Source: Burkholderiales bacterium (GTDB taxonomy: Bacteria; Pseudomonadota; Gammaproteobacteria; Burkholderiales; SG8-41). Taken from it: a stretch of DNA of 64,000 nt. The notes under the pieces are model-generated. The model was not told the DNA's origin. It was given only the letters and a program-made list of their open reading frames with translations, and did not search any database. The position numbers and the translations under genes were made by a program. Numbering within the stretch: the stretch's first letter is position 1; each line of letters starts with the position of its first letter. Of the stretch, positions 14,990-64,000 are shown in pieces. Location: the NCBI GenBank assembly GCA_035456985.1, contig DATICE010000162.1, positions 56,075 to 120,074 on the forward strand, read 5' to 3'.

Positions 14990-15610
14990 TTAGGCGGGCG
15001 CCCGGTAGCGGACGCCGATGATTTCGATCTCGGCCTCGCCGGCGGGGGTGGCGAGCGTCACGACGTCGCCGCTGCGCTTCTTGAGCAGCACCCGGGCGAT
15101 AGGAGACAGCCAGCTCACCTGGCCGCGCTTCACATCCACCTCATCCACCCCCACGATGGTGATGGTGCGCTCGTCGCGCCCACCGCGTACGTAGGCATAG
15201 GTGACTGTGGCGCCGAAGAATATCTGGTCGGAGTCGCCGCGCCGCACCGGATCCACCACTTCCGCGCTGTCGAGGCGCTTATTGAGATAGTGGATGCGGC
15301 GGTCGATCTCGCGCAGCCGCTTCTTGCCGTAGATGTAATCGCCGTTTTCCGAGCGATCGCCGTTGGAGGCCGCCCACTGGATGGTCTTGACGAGCTCGGG
15401 GCGCTCGGCGTCGAGAAGCTTGCTCAATTCGGTCTTGAGCCGCGCGTAACCGAGCGGCGTGATGTAGTTCTTGGCCTCCGGTGCAGTAGCGGCCGTGGTC
15501 GCAGCGCGCCCATTGCCGTTGCGACCATGTCCGTTGCCGTTGCGGCCATGCCCATTGCCGTTACGCCCGTTGCCGTTGCGATTACGCGAAGCTGTCGCTG
15601 ACTTGCTCAT
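14990..15610 (-). CDS. greB: Transcription elongation (transcript cleavage) factor GreB with an N-terminal Asn/Gly-rich repeat extension
   Basis: From ATG 15610 the product reads MSKSATASRNRNGNGRNGNGHGRNGNGHGRNGNGRAATT..NYITPLGYARLKTEL..WAASNGDRSENGDYIYGKKRLREIDRRIHYL..WLSPIARVLLKK. The Gre core is unambiguous. I trimmed the track ORF (to 15748) to the first ATG preceding the repeat. Confidence 0.85.
   Translation of the reverse strand: MSKSATASRNRNGNGRNGNGHGRNGNGHGRNGNGRAATTAATAPEAKNYITPLGYARLKTELSKLLDAERPELVKTIQWAASNGDRSENGDYIYGKKRLREIDRRIHYLNKRLDSAEVVDPVRRGDSDQIFFGATVTYAYVRGGRDERTITIVGVDEVDVKRGQVSWLSPIARVLLKKRSGDVVTLATPAGEAEIEIIGVRYRAPA
15509..15580. repeat. Four imperfect copies of a 15-nt core (CCSRTTGCCGTTRCG), two of them in 21-nt units, inside the greB 5' end
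   Basis: Read directly as cccattgccgttgcg / accatg tccgttgccgttgcg / gccatg cccattgccgttacg / cccgttgccgttgcg. It encodes (RNGNG[HG])n on the minus strand. Confidence 0.85.
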
Positions 15611-18028: not shown

Positions 18029-18262
18029 TCAATGAACGACCAGGGGCTGGTTCAGCAGGACGTCGAAGCTGCCGAGGAACTCGTCCACGCGCTCGACGGA
18101 AGCGTCTTCGGCGACGGCGGCCTGCAGCGAGCTGACGAACCGGTCCGCGACATCGCCCTGGAAGAACGTGCCGCGGGCGCTGCGCTTGTCCACCAGCTCG
18201 TAGCCATGCTGCGCGGGATATTCCACCACGTAGTAGCTGTCGCTGCTATAGATGATGTTCAT
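18029..18262 (-). CDS. Small conserved hypothetical protein (resembles the betaproteobacterial DUF3567 family from memory)
   Basis: 77-aa ORF reading MNIIYSSDSYYVVEYPAQHGYELVDKRSARGTFFQGDVADRF, with host-typical codon usage. The family assignment is from recollection only. Confidence 0.55.
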   Translation of the reverse strand: MNIIYSSDSYYVVEYPAQHGYELVDKRSARGTFFQGDVADRFVSSLQAAVAEDASVERVDEFLGSFDVLLNQPLVVH

Positions 18263-18504
18263 CGCCGTTTACCCCTCACGCCCGAAAACAACGCTTTTCC
18301 GGGCTCTCGGGTTGACATTCTCAGCAAGACGCATTCCGACCGCAGTGATCGTTCTCACGTGTGAGAATTTGGGGGCGTAGACGGTCGATTTCAAGCAATG
18401 AACGGCCGCGTGGATGATGAGCGTCGCGCGACGAGTAGACGGCAATAGGACCAATTCCACATCGCAGGTGGGGTATTGATCACGTCACCTGCTGTTAGCT
18501 GCCC

Positions 18505-18539
18505 GTTACTCGTCACTCGTCATTCGTAACTCGTCACTG
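18505..18539. repeat. Five tandem heptamers GTTACTC GTCACTC GTCATTC GTAACTC GTCACTG overlapping the stop codon of the EamA gene
   Basis: Read directly. On the sense (minus) strand it is CAGTGAC GAGTTAC GAATGAC GAGTGAC GAGTAAC. Confidence 0.9.
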
Positions 18540-19430
18540 CACTTTGGCGCGGCGCAACTGGCTCAGTGCGATCCCGGCAAGGATCAGCAGCAGTCCCGAA
18601 TAAGCGTTCGCGCCGGGCTCCTCCCCCAGCAAAGCCACGCCGATCAGAAGGGCGACGACCGGGATACAGTAGTTGATCAGCGACATGAAGGTGGGCCCCG
18701 CAGATGCGACGAGCTTCAAATGCACGAGGGTCGCGATGGCCGTCGGGCCGATGCCGATCCAGAGGAGAATCGAAACCGCGTCCCAGCCGGGATCGAGCTG
18801 CCACGGCTGGTCCACCGCCAGTGCGACCGGCACGCTGATCACTGCGGCAATCGCAATGATTGCGGCCGAAGCGACCATGACTTCTCCCTTGAGGGTCACG
18901 CGGATGATCACGCCGTTCGCCGCGTAGCACACTGCGCCCGCCAGCACCGCGAGCTGGGCCAGCACCTCGATCGGCGAGCCGCCCAGGCCCGCCAGAGCCG
19001 CCGGCCCCATGAGCACGACGATGCCCCCGAAGCCCAGCAGGAAGCCGAGCACGCGATCACGGGTCATGTGCTCGCCCGCGACAAAGAGATGCGCGAGCAG
19101 CAGCGTCGTGAGCGGCATGATCGCCATGAGGATGCCGGCGAGCGCGCTGTCGATGGACTTCTGACCCCAGGTGATGAACCAGAACGGCAGGCAATTGCCC
19201 ACGAATGCGAGCACGACGTACGGCATCCACGCGCGGCCGACCGGCGGAAAGGTGTAGCCCATCGCACGGATCACTGCGACCAGGATCACCGCACCGATTA
19301 CGAGCCGCGTCGCGACGAGCGTCGCCGGCGGCACGTGCGCGACGCCGAGCTTGATGAACATGAAGTTCGAGCCCCACAGCGCAACCAGCGCCGCGAGCAT
19401 GGCCCAGTCCTTCAGCGCGCGCGCCGCCAT
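18534..19430 (-). CDS. DMT-superfamily (EamA-like) transporter
   Basis: 298-aa, roughly 10-TM hydrophobic ORF with two EamA-type halves. It begins 4 nt after the multicopper oxidase stop. Confidence 0.8.
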   Translation of the reverse strand: MAARALKDWAMLAALVALWGSNFMFIKLGVAHVPPATLVATRLVIGAVILVAVIRAMGYTFPPVGRAWMPYVVLAFVGNCLPFWFITWGQKSIDSALAGILMAIMPLTTLLLAHLFVAGEHMTRDRVLGFLLGFGGIVVLMGPAALAGLGGSPIEVLAQLAVLAGAVCYAANGVIIRVTLKGEVMVASAAIIAIAAVISVPVALAVDQPWQLDPGWDAVSILLWIGIGPTAIATLVHLKLVASAGPTFMSLINYCIPVVALLIGVALLGEEPGANAYSGLLLILAGIALSQLRRAKVQ

Positions 19431-32563: not shown

Positions 32564-32571
32564 CGAACTGC

Positions 32572-32656
32572 GTGAATGGTGAGTAGTGAGCAGCGAGTAA
32601 ACAAAACCACTAATCGACGATCCCGCCCAGTCGACTCACTTCTCACCACTCACTGC
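32572..32656. repeat. Two inverted arrays of heptamers filling the yajC-secD spacer (potential long hairpin)
   Basis: Plus strand: GTGAATG GTGAGTA GTGAGCA GCGAGTA (32572..32599), a 33-nt spacer, then GACTCAC TTCTCAC CACTCAC TGC (32633..32656). The 20-nt arm cores are complementary at 17 of 20 positions. Confidence 0.85.
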
Positions 32657-33032: not shown

Positions 33033-34145
<1,113 letters not shown>

Positions 34146-34169
34146 TCATCGCCCGTTACTCCGCACTCA

Positions 34170-35301: not shown

Positions 35302-35388
35302 GCCGGGATGGCGGAATTGGTAGACGCACGGGACTCAAAATCCCGCGGTGGCGACACCATGAGAGTTCGATTCTCTCTCCCGGCACCA
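35302..35388 (+). tRNA. tRNA-Leu (anticodon CAA), class II with long variable arm, encoded CCA
   Basis: I folded the cloverleaf by hand. Acceptor stem GCCGGGA/TCCCGGC; anticodon stem-loop CGGGA-CTCAAAA-TCCCG; variable arm GGTG..CACC; T-arm GAGAG-TTCGATT-CTCTC; terminal ACCA. Confidence 0.9.
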
Positions 35389-39422: not shown

Positions 39423-39914
39423 TTACCCATTATCCGTTTCGCGAAGCCTGATCATGCCTGAGGCGTCCACATTGCGCACGAGATCGGCGATGCGCCCGCG
39501 TCCAGGCACCACTGCGTCAGGCGCGATCTCCGCGAGCGGCACCAGCACAAAGGCGCGGTCGAGCATGCGCGGATGGGGAACGTCCAGCGCGGGCTCGCGC
39601 ACGGTCAGCCCGCCGTAGAGCAGGAGGTCGAGGTCGAGCGTGCGCGGCCCATTGGGCACATCGCGCACCCGGCAGTGGGCCCGCTCGATCGCGAGGAGAT
39701 GCTCGAGCAGCTCGCGCGCCGCAAGCCGCGTCTCGATTTCCGCCACTGCGTTGACGAAATCCGGCTGGTCGAGGACTCCAGTGGGCGGGTTGCGATAAAG
39801 CGACGAGCGCCCCACGAGCCGGGTCCCGGGCAGGGCCGCGAGCGCCTGCAGCGCGCGGCGGATCTGGGCCGGGGGGTCGTCGAGGTTGCTCCCAAGAGCG
39901 ACAAAAGCAGTCAC
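39423..39914 (-). CDS. folK: 2-amino-4-hydroxy-6-hydroxymethyldihydropteridine diphosphokinase
   Basis: Motifs ALGSNLDDP..GPRTLDLDLLLYG..PHPRMLDRAFVLVPL. I chose the start at GTG 39914 ((M)TAFVALGSNL), which matches the usual FolK N-terminus and length of about 160 aa. Alternatives at ATG 39944 or GTG 39965 would translate the heptamer repeat. Confidence 0.85.
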   Translation of the reverse strand: MTAFVALGSNLDDPPAQIRRALQALAALPGTRLVGRSSLYRNPPTGVLDQPDFVNAVAEIETRLAARELLEHLLAIERAHCRVRDVPNGPRTLDLDLLLYGGLTVREPALDVPHPRMLDRAFVLVPLAEIAPDAVVPGRGRIADLVRNVDASGMIRLRETDNG

Positions 39915-39937
39915 GACTGACGGCTGACGGCTGACAG
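39910..39937. repeat. Four tandem heptamers GTCACGA CTGACGG CTGACGG CTGACAG in the pcnB-folK spacer
   Basis: Read directly. The TGA-containing strand here is antisense to the flanking genes. Confidence 0.85.
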
Positions 39938-39961
39938 GCGTCATCCTTCCGCCTTCTGCCT

Positions 39962-41332
39962 TCACAGTCCGGCGCCCGGCGGCACACCGCCGTGTCCCGG
40001 GGCGCCGCCTGTGCCGCGCGGCCCGCGCCGCCGTCTGCGGCGGCGCTTGCGCGGCCCGGCCTCCCCGGTCAGCATCTGGGCGCGCTCGGACTCACCCGCG
40101 CGCTGGAAGCGCTCCCACCATTCGCCAAGCGCAGGCTCGACCTCGCCGCTTTCGCAGCGCAGGCGCAGGAAATCATAACCGGCCCGGAAGCGCGGGTGCT
40201 CGAGCAGACGGTACGGGCGCTTGCCGGCGCGCTGGTGGAAACGCGGCTGCATCGCCCAGATCTCCCGCATGTCGGCGCCATGACGGTGCGGTATCGCGAG
40301 CTTCCCGGCCTGGGCCCGCATGACGTGATCCATCGCCTGGTAGAGGGCGGGGATCGGCGGCCCGCCCTTCTCCTCCAGTACCTTCCATTCGGCGAGAACC
40401 TCGGGCCACAGCAGCGCCGCGAACAGGAATCCCGGCGACACCGGCTTGTCCACCCTCACCCGCTCGTCCGTGCCTTGGAGCGCGGCGATGACGAAGCGCT
40501 CGCCCGCCGCCCTGCCCATGGCGGCGTCGAGCAGCGGCAGCACGCCGTGGTGCAGCCCTTCCCTGCGCAGCTGCGCGACGCCCTCCGCGGCATGTCCGGA
40601 CATCAGCAGCTTCAGCATCTCATCGAGCAGGCGCGAAGGTGGCACGTGCGCAAGCAGCCCGGCGAGCCGGCGGATCGGCCGGCGCGTCGCCGCGTCGATT
40701 TCGAGCCCGCGGCTCGCCGCGAGCCGCACCGCGCGCAGCATTCGGATGGGGTCCTCCCGGTAGCGCTTCTCCGGGTCGCCGATCATGCGCAGCCGTCGCT
40801 TGAGGAGGTCGGGAACGCCGCCGTGGTAATCCCAGATCTCCTGGGAGGACGGGTCTAAGAACAGCGCGTTGATGGTGAAATCGCGGCGCGTCGCGTCCTG
40901 CTCCTGGGTGCCGAACACGTTGTCGCGCAAAATTCTTCCGTGCTCGTCCGCGACGCGCTCTCCCTCTTCCTCCACCGGGTTCGAGCCGCGGAACGTGGAG
41001 ACTTCCACCAACTCCGGCCCGCACATCACGTGCACCAGGCGGAAGCGCCGCCCGATCACCCGCGAGCGCCGGAACAGCCCGCGCACTTCCTCGGGCGTGG
41101 CGTCGGTCGCGATGTCGAAATCCTTGGGCCTGCGGCCGAGCAGCAGATCGCGCACCGCGCCGCCAACGACGAAGGCTGCGAAGCCATGGCGCTGCAGCGT
41201 CTGCGTCGTGCGCAGCGCGCAAGAGCTGATCGCATCACGGCCGACGCCATGCGCGCCGTGCGCGATGATCTTGGGCTGCGACGACCCGAACAGCTGACCG
41301 GAGAAGACCTTGCCGAGGAAACGCCTGATCAC
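39962..41332 (-). CDS. pcnB: Poly(A) polymerase I
   Basis: 456-aa ORF reading FVVGGAVRDLLLGRRPKDFDIATDATPEEV..RRDFTINALF, with a basic Arg-rich C-terminus. Confidence 0.9.
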   Translation of the reverse strand: MIRRFLGKVFSGQLFGSSQPKIIAHGAHGVGRDAISSCALRTTQTLQRHGFAAFVVGGAVRDLLLGRRPKDFDIATDATPEEVRGLFRRSRVIGRRFRLVHVMCGPELVEVSTFRGSNPVEEEGERVADEHGRILRDNVFGTQEQDATRRDFTINALFLDPSSQEIWDYHGGVPDLLKRRLRMIGDPEKRYREDPIRMLRAVRLAASRGLEIDAATRRPIRRLAGLLAHVPPSRLLDEMLKLLMSGHAAEGVAQLRREGLHHGVLPLLDAAMGRAAGERFVIAALQGTDERVRVDKPVSPGFLFAALLWPEVLAEWKVLEEKGGPPIPALYQAMDHVMRAQAGKLAIPHRHGADMREIWAMQPRFHQRAGKRPYRLLEHPRFRAGYDFLRLRCESGEVEPALGEWWERFQRAGESERAQMLTGEAGPRKRRRRRRRGPRGTGGAPGHGGVPPGAGL

Positions 41333-50760: not shown

Positions 50761-50918
50761 GGCGGTATAGCTCGCTGTTCATCACATGCTGCTCGTTCCT
50801 GCATAACGCAAGGCGGCCCCCGGCGTTTACTTGCGGGCGCGAATTTTCGCATTCGCGATTTACGATTCACGGCGTTTGCGGTTACACTCCCGAGCGTAAC
50901 CTGAAGTAATAGCTCTAG

Positions 50919-52118
50919 ATGGCTGAAAGTTCTAAGAAATCAGTTGTTCTCGGCATCACCGGCGGTATCGCGGCGTACAAGGCGGCCGAGCTCACGCGCG
51001 AGCTTGCGCGCAACGGTATCGAGGTGCAGGTGGTGATGACCGAGGCCGCCGGCGAGCTGGTCACGCCCGCCACCTTCCAGGCGCTCTCGGGCAAGCCGGT
51101 ATACACCGACCTGTGGGACGCACGCGTCGCCGACAACATGGCCCACATCGAGCTCTCGCGCGGCAAGGACGCGATCGTGGTGGCACCAGCAACCGCCGAC
51201 TTCATCGCCAAGCTCGCGCAGGGCCTGGCGGACGACCTGCTCTCGACGTTGTGCCTGGCGCGCGAATGCCCCCTGATCGTGGCGCCGGCGATGAATCGCC
51301 AGATGTGGGACAACCCGGCGACGCGCCGCAACATCGAGCGCCTGCTGCGCGACGGCGTGGCGATCCTCGGCCCCGCGAGCGGCGACCAGGCGTGCGGCGA
51401 GGTCGGCATGGGGCGCATGCTCGAGGCGCGCGACATCGCCGAGGCGGTAACGGCTTTCCTCTCCCCGAAGATCCTGAGCGGGGCGCGCGTGCTGATCACA
51501 GCCGGCCCGACGTTTGAGACCATCGACGCGGTGCGCGGCATCACCAATCGCAGCTCGGGCAAGATGGGCTACGCGGTCGCGCGCGCAGCGCTCGAGGCCG
51601 GCGCCCGGGTGACGTTGATCTCCGGGCCGACCAGTCTCGCCGCACCCGCCGGCGCCCAGCGCGTGGACGTCGTGTCCGCGCGCGACATGTTCCAGGCGGT
51701 GAAAAAGCGCGTGGCGGAGGCCGACATCTTCGTCAGCGTCGCCGCGGTCTCGGACTATCACGTCGCGAGCCCGCAGCGGCAGAAGATCAAGCGGAGCGCG
51801 CGCAGGCTCCGGCTCGACCTCGTGCCCAACCCGGATATCCTGGCGTGGGTCGCATCGCGGCCGCGGCCGCCGTTCTGCGTCGGCTTCGCGGCGGAAACGG
51901 AGAAGCTGCGACAGCATGCCGAAGCCAAGCGCCGCGCGAAGAAGGTGCCGTTGCTCGCGGCGAACCTCGCGCAGCAGGCGATCGGCGCGGACGACAATGA
52001 ACTGACCCTGTTCGACGACGCGGGCGCGCACAAGCTTCCCCGGGCATCGAAGCCGGTCGTGGCGCGGCAGCTCGTCGCGCATATCGCGAAACTCTACAAA
52101 GCAAGCAGTAAGCGCTGA
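50919..52118 (+). CDS. coaBC: Bifunctional phosphopantothenoylcysteine decarboxylase / phosphopantothenate--cysteine ligase
   Basis: 399-aa ORF reading VVLGITGGIAAYKAAEL..APAMNRQMW..ITAGPTFETIDAVRGITNRSSGKMG. Confidence 0.95.
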   Translation: MAESSKKSVVLGITGGIAAYKAAELTRELARNGIEVQVVMTEAAGELVTPATFQALSGKPVYTDLWDARVADNMAHIELSRGKDAIVVAPATADFIAKLAQGLADDLLSTLCLARECPLIVAPAMNRQMWDNPATRRNIERLLRDGVAILGPASGDQACGEVGMGRMLEARDIAEAVTAFLSPKILSGARVLITAGPTFETIDAVRGITNRSSGKMGYAVARAALEAGARVTLISGPTSLAAPAGAQRVDVVSARDMFQAVKKRVAEADIFVSVAAVSDYHVASPQRQKIKRSARRLRLDLVPNPDILAWVASRPRPPFCVGFAAETEKLRQHAEAKRRAKKVPLLAANLAQQAIGADDNELTLFDDAGAHKLPRASKPVVARQLVAHIAKLYKASSKR

Positions 52119-52128
52119 GCAGTGAGCG
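52101..52128. repeat. Four tandem heptamers GCAAGCA GTAAGCG CTGAGCA GTGAGCG spanning the coaBC stop codon
   Basis: Read directly. TAA (52109), TGA (52116, the coaBC stop) and TGA (52123) fall in three different frames. Confidence 0.85.
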
Positions 52129-52628: not shown

Positions 52629-53020
52629 CGAAATCGGCGCTCGTCCTTTTCGCGCATGGCGCGCGCGACGCGCAATGGAGCGAGCCATTCCGGGCAATCC
52701 GGCAGGCGGTTGCGACGCGCCGCCCCGATCTCACCGTAGATCTCGCGTTCCTCGAGCTGATGCAGCCGGCGCTGGGCGACTGCGTGGCGCGCCTGGTCAA
52801 GGATGGCCACACCCGGATCACCGTCGCTCCGCTGTTCCTGGCGCAGGGCGGACATCTGAAGAAGGACCTGCCGCGACTGTTGAAAGACCTGAGCACGCGG
52901 CACGCGGCGGCGGAGATCACAGTGCTGCCGCCGATCGGCGAGGTGACCGAACTGCTGAACGCCATCTCGGAGTGGCTGGTAAGCAGCGCGCCGCGCCAGA
53001 CAGCAAGTGGTGAGCAGTGA
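52625..53020 (+). CDS. CbiX/SirB N-terminal-domain (class II chelatase-like) protein
   Basis: 131-aa ORF reading [37 protein letters not shown]. Confidence 0.7.
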
Positions 53021-53023
53021 GCA
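53003..53023. repeat. Three heptamers GCAAGTG GTGAGCA GTGAGCA spanning the CbiX-like gene stop codon
   Basis: Read directly. It lies 7 nt upstream of the ATG of the next gene. Confidence 0.8.
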
Positions 53024-53030
53024 GAAAACT

Positions 53031-55297: not shown

Positions 55298-56281
55298 TTG
55301 ACCATGATTGCTTGCGCGCAGCGTAATCTGCTGGCAGCCGTTCTGGCTGCGCTATCGGTCTTCCTGATACCCATCGGTGCCCGCAGTCAGGACTATCCGG
55401 TCAAGGTCGTGCGCGTGATCGTGCCGTTCGCGCCGGGTGGCGGCAGCGACATCACCGCGCGCCAGGTCGCGCAGAAATTCAGCGAGCAGTTCCGGCAGCA
55501 GTTCGTGGTGGACAACCGCGGCGGGGCGAGCGGGCTGATCGGAATGGAGCTGACGGCCAAGGCTCCGCCCGACGGATACACAATCATGGTGATGTCCGGC
55601 AGCTTCTCGGCGACGCCGGCGACGCACAAGCCGGCGTTCGACCCGATCAGCAACATCCTTCCGGTCGCCGAAGTGGGCTTTACCCCGTTCGTGCTGTCGG
55701 TGCACCCGACGCTCCCCGTCAAGAGCGCCAGGGAGCTGATCGCGCTGGCGAGGGCGCGACCGGGGCAGCTCAACTATGTCACTCCGGGCGTGGGCAGCCT
55801 CACGCACCTGGCGACGGAGCTCCTGATCAACATGACCAAGATCGACATGGTCGGCGTCGCCTACAAAAGCACCGGCGCGGCGCTTCCCGACCTGTTATCG
55901 GGGCAGATACAGCTGATCGTGGGCAGCCTGCTCCCTACCCTCCCGCATATCCAGTCCGGCAAGCTCCGCCCCTTGGCGGTGACCACCGCAAAGCGCTGGT
56001 ACTCCCTGCCCAGCGTTCCGCCCCTCAATGAAACGCTGCCCGGCTACGAGGTCGAACTCTGGTTCGGAGTCATGGTGCCGCGGGGCACACCGCCCGCCGT
56101 CATCGACCGCCTCAATGCCGCGGTGAACCGGTTTCTGCAGGAGCCCGACATGAAGAAGAACCTCGAGGCGCAGGGCATGGCCCCCTCGGGCGGCACGACG
56201 CAGCGGTTCGGCGAGCGCATCCGCAAGGACTACGAGCGCTGGGTGAAGGTGGTGCGAGAGCAGAACATCAAGCCGGAGTAG
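55298..56281 (+). CDS. Bug-family TTT periplasmic substrate-binding protein
   Basis: 327-aa ORF with a signal peptide followed by SQDYPVKVVRVIVPFAPGGGSD. Confidence 0.85.
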   Translation: MTMIACAQRNLLAAVLAALSVFLIPIGARSQDYPVKVVRVIVPFAPGGGSDITARQVAQKFSEQFRQQFVVDNRGGASGLIGMELTAKAPPDGYTIMVMSGSFSATPATHKPAFDPISNILPVAEVGFTPFVLSVHPTLPVKSARELIALARARPGQLNYVTPGVGSLTHLATELLINMTKIDMVGVAYKSTGAALPDLLSGQIQLIVGSLLPTLPHIQSGKLRPLAVTTAKRWYSLPSVPPLNETLPGYEVELWFGVMVPRGTPPAVIDRLNAAVNRFLQEPDMKKNLEAQGMAPSGGTTQRFGERIRKDYERWVKVVREQNIKPE

Positions 56282-62950: not shown

Positions 62951-63898
62951 TCAGGCTTTCAGGAACTCGTCCAGCACCGCGCACCACGCCGCCGCCAGGT
63001 TGCCGCGGTGGTAGCCGCCGCCTCCGAAGCCCATGATGCGCCCGCCGCAGAACTCGTTCGCGAGCGCGCACAGGCGCCGCGCCGCGTGCGCGTGCGCCGC
63101 CGGCGTGTACTGCAGCATCGCCAACGGATCGCCCGCGAGGCTGTCGGCGCCGCATTGGAACAGGATGAACTCGGGCTTCCCCCCGCGCACGTGCGCCTCG
63201 ACTGCTTCCCACACCTTCTTGAACTCCCGGTCGCCCATGCCCGGCAGCAGCGGCACGTTGAGCTTCGTTCCCTTTGCCGCGCCCTTCCCAATCTCGTGCA
63301 CGTGGCCGGTGCCAGGGTAGAGCGTGCGCCCGTCCTGGTGGACGTCGGCGTAGATGAGATCCGGGTCCTCCTCGTAGGGATAGTAGAGGCCGTCGCCGTG
63401 ATGGACGTCGATGTCCACGTAAGCGATGCGCCGGATATCGAACTGCTCCCGCAGCGTATCGATCACGACACCCACGTCGTTGAATACGCAGAAACCCGCG
63501 GCCGATCCCGGACGCGCGTGGTGGAGGCCCCCGATCGGCTGGAACGTGCGCACCGCCCCGCCGCTAATGATCGAGTCGAGCCCGTGCAGGGCCGAGCCCG
63601 CCACCGTCGCCGCAGCCTCGTAGATGCCCGGGCAGGCCGGGGTGTCACCGTAATCAATGGCGCCGTACCCCTCCTCGGATTTTTCCTTCACCCAGGCGAC
63701 GTGCTCGGGCGTGTGGAAGCGGTGCAGCTCCTCTTTCGCCGCCATCCGCGGGTCGGCGATCGCGGCGCGCTTGTCGAGCCCCTGCTTCACCGCTTCCTTC
63801 CAGAACGCTTCCTGCCGGTCCGGGCCGAACGGGTGGCCGTGGGGAAAGCCGTACTTCCCGAGCGATTCCCCGACGTAAAGCTTGACCTCGTTTTTCAT
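62951..63898 (-). CDS. Histone deacetylase-family (AcuC/acetylpolyamine amidohydrolase-like) zinc hydrolase
   Basis: 315-aa ORF reading GGLHHARPGSAAGFCVFND..IAYVDIDVHHGDG..GGGGY. Confidence 0.85.
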   Translation of the reverse strand: MKNEVKLYVGESLGKYGFPHGHPFGPDRQEAFWKEAVKQGLDKRAAIADPRMAAKEELHRFHTPEHVAWVKEKSEEGYGAIDYGDTPACPGIYEAAATVAGSALHGLDSIISGGAVRTFQPIGGLHHARPGSAAGFCVFNDVGVVIDTLREQFDIRRIAYVDIDVHHGDGLYYPYEEDPDLIYADVHQDGRTLYPGTGHVHEIGKGAAKGTKLNVPLLPGMGDREFKKVWEAVEAHVRGGKPEFILFQCGADSLAGDPLAMLQYTPAAHAHAARRLCALANEFCGGRIMGFGGGGYHRGNLAAAWCAVLDEFLKA

Positions 63899-63919
63899 GC
63901 CGTACTCACGATAAACCCA

Positions 63920-64000
63920 TCACCCATCACCGAAAAGCGACAGCTGCCCCGCTCGCCCGGGCCCGCGGAATTGCGTGGTATCGAGCGTCTTGTTGCGCGA
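63920..64000 (-). CDS. 3' end (26 codons) of an unidentified gene entering from the right window edge
   Basis: The minus-strand frame is open from position 64000 and reads SRNKTLDTTQFRGPGRAGQLSLFGDG, then stops. The stop lies inside a GGGTGAT heptamer repeat. It is too short to assign. Confidence 0.3.
   Translation of the reverse strand, partial: SRNKTLDTTQFRGPGRAGQLSLFGDG

Follow-up and report, generated by a model that had tools for sequence, protein, structure and literature searches.

Heptanucleotide repeat arrays at gene 3' ends, in part paired as predicted hairpins, in a betaproteobacterial lineage

The 64,000-nt stretch analysed here (the window; positions 56,075 to 120,074 of contig DATICE010000162.1, assembly GCA_035456985.1, from a Burkholderiales bacterium of the SG8-41 lineage) contains short tandem arrays of heptanucleotides at the junctions between genes. 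These arrays were found to be a real, fast-changing and lineage-specific class of heptanucleotide repeats located at gene 3' ends. In its full form, the element is composed of the stop codon of the upstream gene, a 5' arm of 3–8 heptamers, an apical loop or mini-hairpin and a complementary 3' arm of heptamers, forming a long imperfect hairpin. The explanation favoured here, with moderate confidence and with all of its functional steps inferred, is that of slippage-driven repeats of the kind known as short tandemly repeated repetitive (STRR) sequences or as Xanthomonas-type heptanucleotide repeats, which would build 3'-end hairpins similar to those of repetitive extragenic palindromic (REP) sequences and would tune expression.

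The enrichment of period 7 was evaluated with a lag self-match scan, in which at least 15 matches were required in 21 comparisons. The scan returned nine period-7 arrays in the window, against 0, 1, 1, 0, 1, 0 and 1 arrays for periods 4, 5, 8, 10, 11, 13 and 14, respectively, with a Poisson probability of approximately 1e-8. Seven of the nine arrays are at gene junctions, whereas the other two (3447 and 20986) are GC-rich low-complexity sequences outside the family. The GTGA core is common to seven of nine window sites. A dispersed period-7 family at gene junctions, as proposed in the first-pass annotation made from the letters of the window, is present, and most of its units in the window share this core. 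The fixed-length comparison across periods replaced a strict scan at 85% match, to which the arrays, being imperfect, were invisible. Period-7 arrays were also counted in related sequences, among them loci centred on tgt, the nearest of which come from soil, sediment and groundwater metagenome-assembled genomes (MAGs) with 75–94% Tgt identity. The density of period-7 arrays was 0.353 per kb in the clade (the window, L001–L008 and L012) and 0.407 per kb in 80 metagenome loci carrying orthologues of an EamA-family transporter gene of the window. Nearer outgroups (L009–L029, minus L012) gave 0.053 per kb, and distant betaproteobacteria of similar G+C content (L030–L080) gave 0.022 per kb, where period 7 was no commoner than other periods. 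The enrichment of the clade over the distant relatives is about 16-fold. As separate observations on this material, period-10 arrays were enriched in the EamA loci L103–L182 (0.127 per kb, compared with 0.016–0.044 elsewhere), and the MAG contigs L003, L006, L012 and L061 are labelled Streptomycetaceae, Bordetella parapertussis or Enterobacteriaceae while carrying a tgt-yajC-secD locus 74–86% Tgt-identical to that of the window; the bin taxonomy labels of these four look unreliable.

Placement was determined relative to genes called with a codon-usage log-odds caller, which gives approximate starts; the calling of open reading frames (ORFs) by length and by G+C content at third codon positions was abandoned, having chosen wrong-strand ORFs. 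The clade DNA examined amounts to 469 kb and contains 175 arrays. Non-coding sequence accounts for only some 16% of this DNA but for 155 of the arrays. Co-directional and convergent spacers contained 3.83 and 4.02 arrays per kb, respectively, whereas divergent spacers contained 0.34, and arrays were present in 3 of 55 divergent spacers against 96 of 328 others (Fisher p = 5e-5). The scarcity in divergent spacers ties the arrays to gene 3' ends and not to non-coding DNA at large. Relative to the last base of the stop codon, the median start of the first array is -1.5 nt. Roughly half of the co-directional pairs have a 3' arm whose end is no further than about 10 nt from the next start codon. 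Of 37 genes that follow paired arrays, 6 have a motif similar to a Shine-Dalgarno (SD) sequence, whereas array-free spacers carry one in 56 of 136 cases (p = 0.006); this result is soft, since the start codons come from a crude gene caller. In the convergent spacers L111:1556-1755, L120:3814-4015, L127:2325-2439 and L128:6343-6494, a classical terminator (GGTTTGCGGAC...GTCCGCAAACC TTTC) was observed directly after the stop, with CGTGATT-type arrays beyond it, so that some arrays may lie beyond the end of the main transcript.

In the relatives, a forward array is typically followed by its own reverse complement 15–60 nt later. The complementarity of two arms was 5.45 of 7 positions within a spacer and 4.16 of 7 between spacers (p = 4e-12), and 31 distinct consensus units were counted among 44 arm pairs. 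Arm lengths are usually balanced, and single-base interruptions of the stem are most often 7 nt apart. Independent expansion of the two arms was considered as a general rule and ruled out by the mostly balanced arms, a few long arrays being unbalanced. The heptamer hairpins have no T run and are in this respect distinct from intrinsic terminators, which combine a short G+C-rich stem with a U tract. Most window sites are short single arrays filling spacers of 25–45 nt. The first-pass annotation, which recorded the inverted copy in the yajC-secD spacer, missed the pairing of arrays as hairpin arms, seen also at the array it used as exemplar, and the link to gene 3' ends.

Turnover among close strains was recorded at the yajC-secD junction, where the complete spacer is a heptamer-repeat hairpin (Table 1). 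In the sense direction, the TAA stop of yajC is followed by ATAAGCA, GTGAGTG, GTGAGAA, GTGAGTC and GAC, then by the loop, and after the loop by CTCGCTG, CTCACTA, CTCACCA and TTCACGC, then AGTTCG and the ATG of secD. The 5' arm (32633-32656) and the 3' arm (32572-32599) are inverted copies with 85–89% complementarity, and the predicted minimum free energy of the sense strand is -46.0 kcal/mol (z = -5.3). The same hairpin layout was found in L001, L003–L008, L010, L012, L014, L017, L020, L023, L025 and L055, with units that differ per lineage (GTGAGTN, GTAATGG, CGTAAAT, GTGATTC, GTGAATG and others). Spacer lengths in near relatives were 93, 86, 100, 93, 58 and 37 nt, each of which leaves a remainder of 2 on division by 7. 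The YajC protein of the window is encoded without a difference by ten contigs, whose secD DNA is 94–97% identical to the window's, and these strains present three structural alleles of the spacer (93, 58 and 37 nt), all in 7-nt register, which vary in unit number and in the presence of the loop. The stop of yajC is TAA or TGA inside the first unit, switched by a 7-nt indel, whereas the tail TTCACGC-AGTTCG-ATG is unchanged in all alleles and the adjacent, repeat-free tgt-yajC spacer shows no indels in the same strains. The first-pass annotation had suggested comparing the copy number of orthologous spacers, and had offered slippage-prone neutral elements as one of three readings; its word neutral aside, slippage is, of the three, the one backed by the spacer steps of 7 nt and by the differences in unit number among these near-identical strains. 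In the distant species L041, L073 and L077, classical terminator-like hairpins occupy the yajC-secD spacer, and a hairpin is therefore the conserved feature there.

Some further observations were made at this spacer. The hairpins of L015, L019 and L024 are built from 8-nt units (GTGAACGA, GGGTGAAC), so the step size varies by lineage while the GTGA core persists. The secD gene of this clade (window 32564-32585; spacers of L001–L025) has no SD motif; a conserved TCACG-N8-12-ATG tail stands before it and doubles as the final unit of the 3' arm. In Gallionella-type relatives, AGAGG is found instead.

The exemplar array is placed on the minus strand at the end of the gene for the EamA-family transporter. 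Its sense strand reads CAGTGAC GAGTTAC GAATGAC GAGTGAC GAGTAAC, and Tandem Repeats Finder (TRF) reported it at 18504..18538 with period 7, 5.0 copies and 82% matches. The stop of the EamA gene is the first TGA of the array (18534-18536), inside the first unit, followed by further stops at +14, +21 and +28; the four stops (TGA, TGA, TGA and TAA at offsets 4, 18, 25 and 32, respectively) close all three frames, and on sequence, gene end and frame closure alike the first-pass annotation had been accurate. The predicted hairpin is ordered as 5' heptamer arm, central mini-hairpin (near 18454-18480, with GACCAAT-type flanks and CCCCAC..GTGGAAT) and decayed 3' arm with ACTCGTC (near 18410-18450). Its RNA fold has a predicted energy of -52.1 kcal/mol (z = -2.7) and places the stop codon at the base of the stem; the 3' arm is partly decayed, and the inverted repeat 18425-18444 / 18500-18519 is 75% complementary. 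The central motif is conserved in L103, L105, L106, L108, L111, L114, L120 and others. Among EamA orthologues (77–97% identity), the region after the stop has the same plan throughout: an arm of heptamers on the 5' side, a small hairpin in the centre, the complementary arm on the 3' side and a conserved block, CTTGAAAnCGACCG. The units are lineage-specific and include GACGAGT, GACAAGT, GATAAGT, GAAGGCN, GTTCCRR and GGAGTGA. Spacer lengths step by 7 nt within unit families (70/84/91/105/126, 89/96/103 and 125/132), whereas a global modulo-7 test over all lineages was not clearly non-uniform, the signal being confined to the unit families. No intrinsic terminator-like site and no sigma-70 promoter were found in 18200-18560, and the same interval gave no match to Rfam 15 at E <= 1.

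Two side observations concern the neighbourhood of this hairpin. The antisense fold of the EamA-downstream hairpins of L111, L120, L124, L127, L131, L137, L140 and L148 is 9–20 kcal/mol better than the sense fold; members of one family agree in this asymmetry, though common descent links many of the loci. On the minus strand, the approximately 130 nt between the exemplar hairpin and the DUF3567 gene at 18029-18262 (18263-18405) are strongly conserved in some 40 metagenome loci, the conserved pieces being CTTGAAAtCGACCG..., GTGAGAAC.GTCAC and TGTCAACCCGAGAGCCCGGAAAAGCGTTGT. This interval gave no Rfam match at E <= 1 and no sigma-70 consensus, and may be an undescribed leader or regulatory region.

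Arrays gain and lose whole 7-nt units, the hairpin apex can be deleted, near-identical strains are hypervariable in unit number and elements can be lost. Long perfect arrays in relatives (CCATTAC x15 and GAGTTCC x17) are a sign of recent expansion. Unit families also recur within a genome: CGTGAwT was found at 4 spacers of L128, GTTCCRR at 3–4 and GAGNAAC at 3 spacers of L003, and L111, L120, L127 and L128 each present the same unit family at 3–4 spacers.

The stop codons of the arrays were counted per unit. First arrays contained 0.59 stop triplets per unit in the sense strand and 0.14 in the antisense strand (p = 9e-10), with a background of 0.19, in agreement with the richness in sense-strand stops noticed in the first-pass annotation. 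Arrays abutting or overlapping the gene's own stop had 0.74 sense and 0.08 antisense stops per unit (n = 53), whereas those starting >5 nt downstream of the stop had 0.31 and 0.24, respectively (n = 33), a difference that was not significant. Since the enrichment is limited to stop-abutting arrays, it is a by-product of amplifying a stop-containing heptamer, the copies of which fall in all frames, a period of 7 not being divisible by 3. The enrichment is probably raised further by a tolerance filter, since changes in unit number of an array across a gene end are harmless only where a stop is close by in each frame; the ends of coaBC and of a cbiX-like gene, with the real stop in the second unit, illustrate such an inferred filter.

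Table 1. Heptanucleotide arrays and associated hairpins in the window
Feature	Position	Strand	Basis
Exemplar heptamer array, 5' hairpin arm at the EamA stop	18505..18539	(-)	Sequence, TRF, lag scan, fold
Whole predicted hairpin downstream of EamA	18410..18542	(-)	RNA fold
Complete yajC-secD spacer, heptamer-repeat hairpin	32564..32656	(-)	Sequence, inverted repeat, fold
queA-tgt spacer, degenerate single array	34137..34169	(-)	Begins at queA stop
pcnB-folK junction, two abutting arrays	39905..39963	(-)	Sequence, TRF, lag scan
Weak three-unit array ATTCGCG ATTTACG ATTCACG (reverse complement CGTGAAT-type), divergent spacer	50846..50873	.	Lag-7 score 13 of 21
coaBC-dut array GCAGTAA GCGCTGA GCAGTGA GCGG	52101..52128	(+)	Sequence, lag scan
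GTGAGCA GTGAGCA, two units only, straddling the cbiX-like stop (53018-53020)	53003..53023	(+)	Sequence, TRF
GGTGATG GGTGATG GG, sense	63904..63932	(-)	Sequence, TRF

The remaining sites of the window are listed in Table 1. All of the sites named in the first-pass annotation are present, though 53003-53023 has only two units, 34141-34169 is degenerate and 50846-50873 is weak. TRF also reported period 7 at 39913-39935, 39945-39963, 53010-53024 and 63915-63931. The queA-tgt array reads GTGATGA GTGCGGA GTAACGG GCGATGA in the sense direction, and the orthologous spacer of L001 (6807-6846), the nearest relative, contains the clean array GTGATGA GTGATGG GTGATGA GTGACGA. At the pcnB-folK junction, a first array of unit GAAGGCN (39935-39963) reads GAAGGCA GAAGGCG GAAGGAT directly after the pcnB TGA, and GAAGGCN arrays were also found at this junction in L003, L005 and L008. 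The second array (39910-39937; GTCAGCC GTCAGCC GTCAGTC) is probably within the first folK codons or just upstream of the folK start. The true stop of coaBC (52116-52118) is in the second unit of its array, which therefore encodes the last coaBC codons, and the array at the cbiX-like stop is 10 nt before the DUF192 start. No variation was found in the coaBC-dut and cbiX-DUF192 arrays among the strains compared, which are 98.2–99.9% identical. The array at 63904..63932 contains the stop of the upstream minus-strand ORF, as had been claimed for it, and is located about 20 nt before the start of the gene 62951-63898, for which an exact-protein look-up found no record.

Additional observations were made at or near these sites. 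The locus L082:230-420, orthologous to 34137-34169 in a strain with identical YajC, carries, in place of the array, a 131-nt sequence with terminal inverted repeats (TAACCGCCAAGGCGCCAA ... TTGGCGTCTTGGCGGTTTA) and the look of a miniature inverted-repeat transposable element (MITE); the replacement alters the QueA C-terminus (from ..IERQ-stop to ..IERAGN-stop), and similar CGCCAAG-rich repeats were found in L128:774-1007. A tRNA gene (Rfam, 59 bits) at 35302-35385 (+) is in the spacer upstream of queA, on the strand opposite to the flanking genes, and was the only match of the window to Rfam 15 at gathering score, with no riboswitch or other known RNA family among the results. TRF also reported a 21-nt (or 15-nt) tandem repeat, GCCCATTGCCGTTGCGACCAT, with about 3.8 copies at 15507-15587, inside the predicted gene 14990-15610 (-); this tandem repeat is probably coding.

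The favoured explanation combines a mutational and a functional part. Units would be generated by slipped-strand mispairing in 7-nt steps, and arrays would survive only where a 7-nt indel gives no gene frameshift. Once transcribed, the hairpins would act like the stem-loops of REP sequences and bacterial interspersed mosaic elements (BIMEs), protecting the upstream message and damping read-through, and they would bury the ribosome-binding region of the downstream gene, the translation of which would depend on a ribosome terminating at the stem base. The net effect would be a tuned expression ratio of neighbours (e.g., YajC over SecDF) and not an essential signal. On this basis, the hairpins probably tune mRNA stability and the translation of the downstream gene. 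The lower frequency of SD-like motifs after paired arrays, soft as it is, fits a masking of the ribosome-binding region, and the terminator-like hairpins of the distant species support a conserved role for a hairpin at yajC-secD.

Several points weigh against this explanation. Its functional part is deduced from sequence, and the slippage account leaves unexplained why the step is 7. The exemplar fold is only moderately better than its shuffles, and the SD comparison is affected by the approximate start codons, as mentioned. No systematic advantage of the sense strand in stability was found (11 sense and 19 antisense, p = 0.2), and RNA-level selection on the sense strand, considered as a G.U signature, was set aside as unsupported by these counts. 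Additionally, several EamA families have A.C mismatches in the sense RNA where the antisense would have G.U pairs, and there is consequently no sign that the fold of the mRNA has been selected. Strains can also dispense with the elements: L002, with 85% Tgt identity, has no yajC-secD spacer, the two genes overlapping as TAATG, and L082 has an unrelated 131-nt sequence where its queA-tgt array would be. Finally, the re-use of unit families by one genome at unrelated spacers, to which the GTGA core of the window's units belongs as well, is not explained by simple slippage in situ.

The rival explanations differ in which of these findings they accommodate. Frame-independent translation-stop or decoupling spacers, which would halt ribosomes in any frame, were suggested in the first-pass annotation; stop-adjacent arrays do close all three frames, and the sense-strand stop density of first arrays is 4-fold that of the antisense strand. 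The enrichment is gone, however, in arrays >5 nt after the stop, the 3' arms and several unit families (GTTCCGR, GTTNCTC) have no stops, a close relative joins the same genes directly through the TAATG overlap and out-of-frame stops are not needed at a gene end, which makes this function highly improbable. Neutral mutational debris is a stronger rival, if still an unlikely one. According to it, a replication or repair bias of the lineage makes 7-nt duplications, which are tolerated outside reading frames with no fitness effect. The fast turnover, the dispensability, the long perfect arrays in relatives and the lack of a sense-strand folding advantage all fit, and the stop enrichment is accounted for by stop-codon seeding. 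Nevertheless, divergent spacers, which are likewise non-coding, contain about 11-fold fewer arrays, the arms remain complementary and balanced while their units turn over, and unit families are re-used within genomes. The hairpin also persists at yajC-secD across many lineages and in all three alleles of one population.

The re-use of unit families within genomes keeps two further rivals alive, both of which involve a factor acting in trans. REP-like mobile palindromes, or REPINs (REP doublets forming hairpins), would be copied to gene 3' ends by an enzyme such as a Y1 transposase of the REP-associated tyrosine transposase (RAYT) type, with the heptamer periodicity being secondary. Their placement between unidirectional and convergent ORFs is that of REPs (PMC3733652), several spacers of a single contig share one unit family with inner TCGAC..GTCGA and outer GCGTGA..TCACGC, presence/absence polymorphism was seen (L002) and the inverted doublets forming hairpins resemble REPINs. 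This origin was nonetheless judged improbable, as each window site has its own unit variant, two tested signatures were single-copy in the 64-kb window, 31 distinct units occur among the 44 pairs, no GTAG tag was seen and lengths change within a locus in 7-nt steps and not by gain or loss of whole elements; no RAYT/Y1 transposase was noticed in the window, whose proteins had no systematic scan. The other candidate, a double-stranded DNA heptad array bound by one protein dimer per 7-bp unit, is modelled on the ribbon-helix-helix protein omega/ParB of plasmid pSM19035 and its WATCACW sites. The units AATCACG, CATCACC and TATCACC and their complements resemble WATCACW, omega sites mix direct and inverted heptads (PMC9499535), and genome-preferred unit families would fit a trans-acting factor. 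Against such binding, one genome holds many unrelated unit families, arms match their own partner better than arrays elsewhere, divergent and promoter-containing spacers are avoided, the arms have a loop between them, unlike the contiguous omega sites, and the partner protein is only putative; the chance of this reading being correct is very small.

Heptameric intergenic repeats, both single and in inverted pairs, have already been published, and the arrays of this lineage are a further case of a kind that is mechanistically unexplained. The STRR heptamers of the cyanobacteria Calothrix and Anabaena are non-coding tandem heptanucleotides, several families of which share a genome and for which no function is known; they differ from the present arrays in phylum and in their units, e.g., CCCCAGT. 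The existence of cyanobacterial STRR heptamers is noted by Rehm et al. 2015 (PMC4692102), who described intergenic heptamers of Xanthomonas (GGGAATC) and Nostoc (GGGGAYT), present singly or as convergent inverted pairs. These are the closest match, sharing 7-nt tandem intergenic units, single arrays or inverted pairs capable of forming stem-loops and confinement to a lineage, and in both cases the array type is kept between species while lengths differ (PMC4692102). However, one G-rich, quadruplex-prone unit dominates each genome there, whereas many units without G-tracts were found here, the first unit typically holds a stop codon and the host is an uncultured betaproteobacterial lineage. The TAACTGA direct repeats of Beggiatoaceae, cyanobacteria and Bacteroidetes, for which a role in translation was proposed, are likewise intergenic heptamers with stop triplets (TAA, TGA) near coding boundaries, often at the expected ribosome-binding site (PMC4679880). 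They are nearly all direct (1/170 inverted), consist of a single unit and are mainly just upstream of starts, whereas in the arrays described here inverted pairs are common and the anchor is the stop codon.

An equivalent in betaproteobacteria, of which the first-pass annotation knew none, had in fact been recorded: in a 2007 survey of long simple sequence repeats (SSRs) with 5–11 nt units, as summarised in PMC4679880, heptanucleotides were the commonest and four Burkholderia genomes were among the richest. According to the same summary (PMC4679880), slippage of the polymerase by 7 nt at a time had been put forward as the origin of heptanucleotide SSRs. The survey scored long near-perfect arrays, whereas most window arrays are short and degenerate. 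REP, BIME and REPIN sequences are extragenic hairpins, often inverted doublets, which overlap gene ends and are presumed to form RNA stem-loops (PMC3733652, PMC3116915). The placement mainly between unidirectional and convergent genes is the same, but REPs are 20–40 nt long, carry a GTAG or CGTC tag, are highly similar over hundreds of loci and are linked to RAYTs, whereas the stems described here are made of locus-specific heptamers. The arms begin with GTGA-type units, the stems span 60–130 nt and no GTAG head was seen in them; GACG/CGTC occurs inside some units, never as a terminal tag. The omega (ParB) operators of pSM19035 are contiguous WATCACW 7-bp units in direct and inverted orientation (PMC9499535), and some units of the present arrays read AATCACG/CGTGATT. 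They differ in overlapping promoters on a Firmicute plasmid and in having a known protein, whereas promoter spacers are avoided, loops are present and units are many in the arrays of this lineage.

A more speculative reading, considered improbable, is that the paired arrays are a distinct class of self-expanding hairpins that bridge a stop codon and the next start codon. The stem base would hold the upstream stop and the SD-less region of the next start about 10 nt apart, and a terminating ribosome would unmask the start region and re-initiate there, while the hairpin could vary freely in length by 7 nt at a time. The preferred units would be set by a factor specific to the lineage, either a protein that binds nucleic acids or a peculiarity of replication or repair. 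An extended SD pairing was also considered, GGTGAT being complementary to the 16S 3' end, and was put aside, as most units have only 4–5 complementary bases. If the bridge between stop and start were real, the arrays would be an operon-level device for protein stoichiometry built from a microsatellite.

The present case is unusually readable, as it combines stop-codon anchoring, spacer-wide hairpins, polymorphism in near-identical environmental strains and natural alleles without the hairpin. The natural allele series of the yajC-secD spacer, with lengths of 93, 58, 37 and -1 nt, makes it possible to tell a tuning of mRNA stability or translational coupling from tolerated slippage. The arrays also carry a warning for annotation, since unstable repeats can determine where genes end in these genomes, along with their stop codons and short C-terminal tails.

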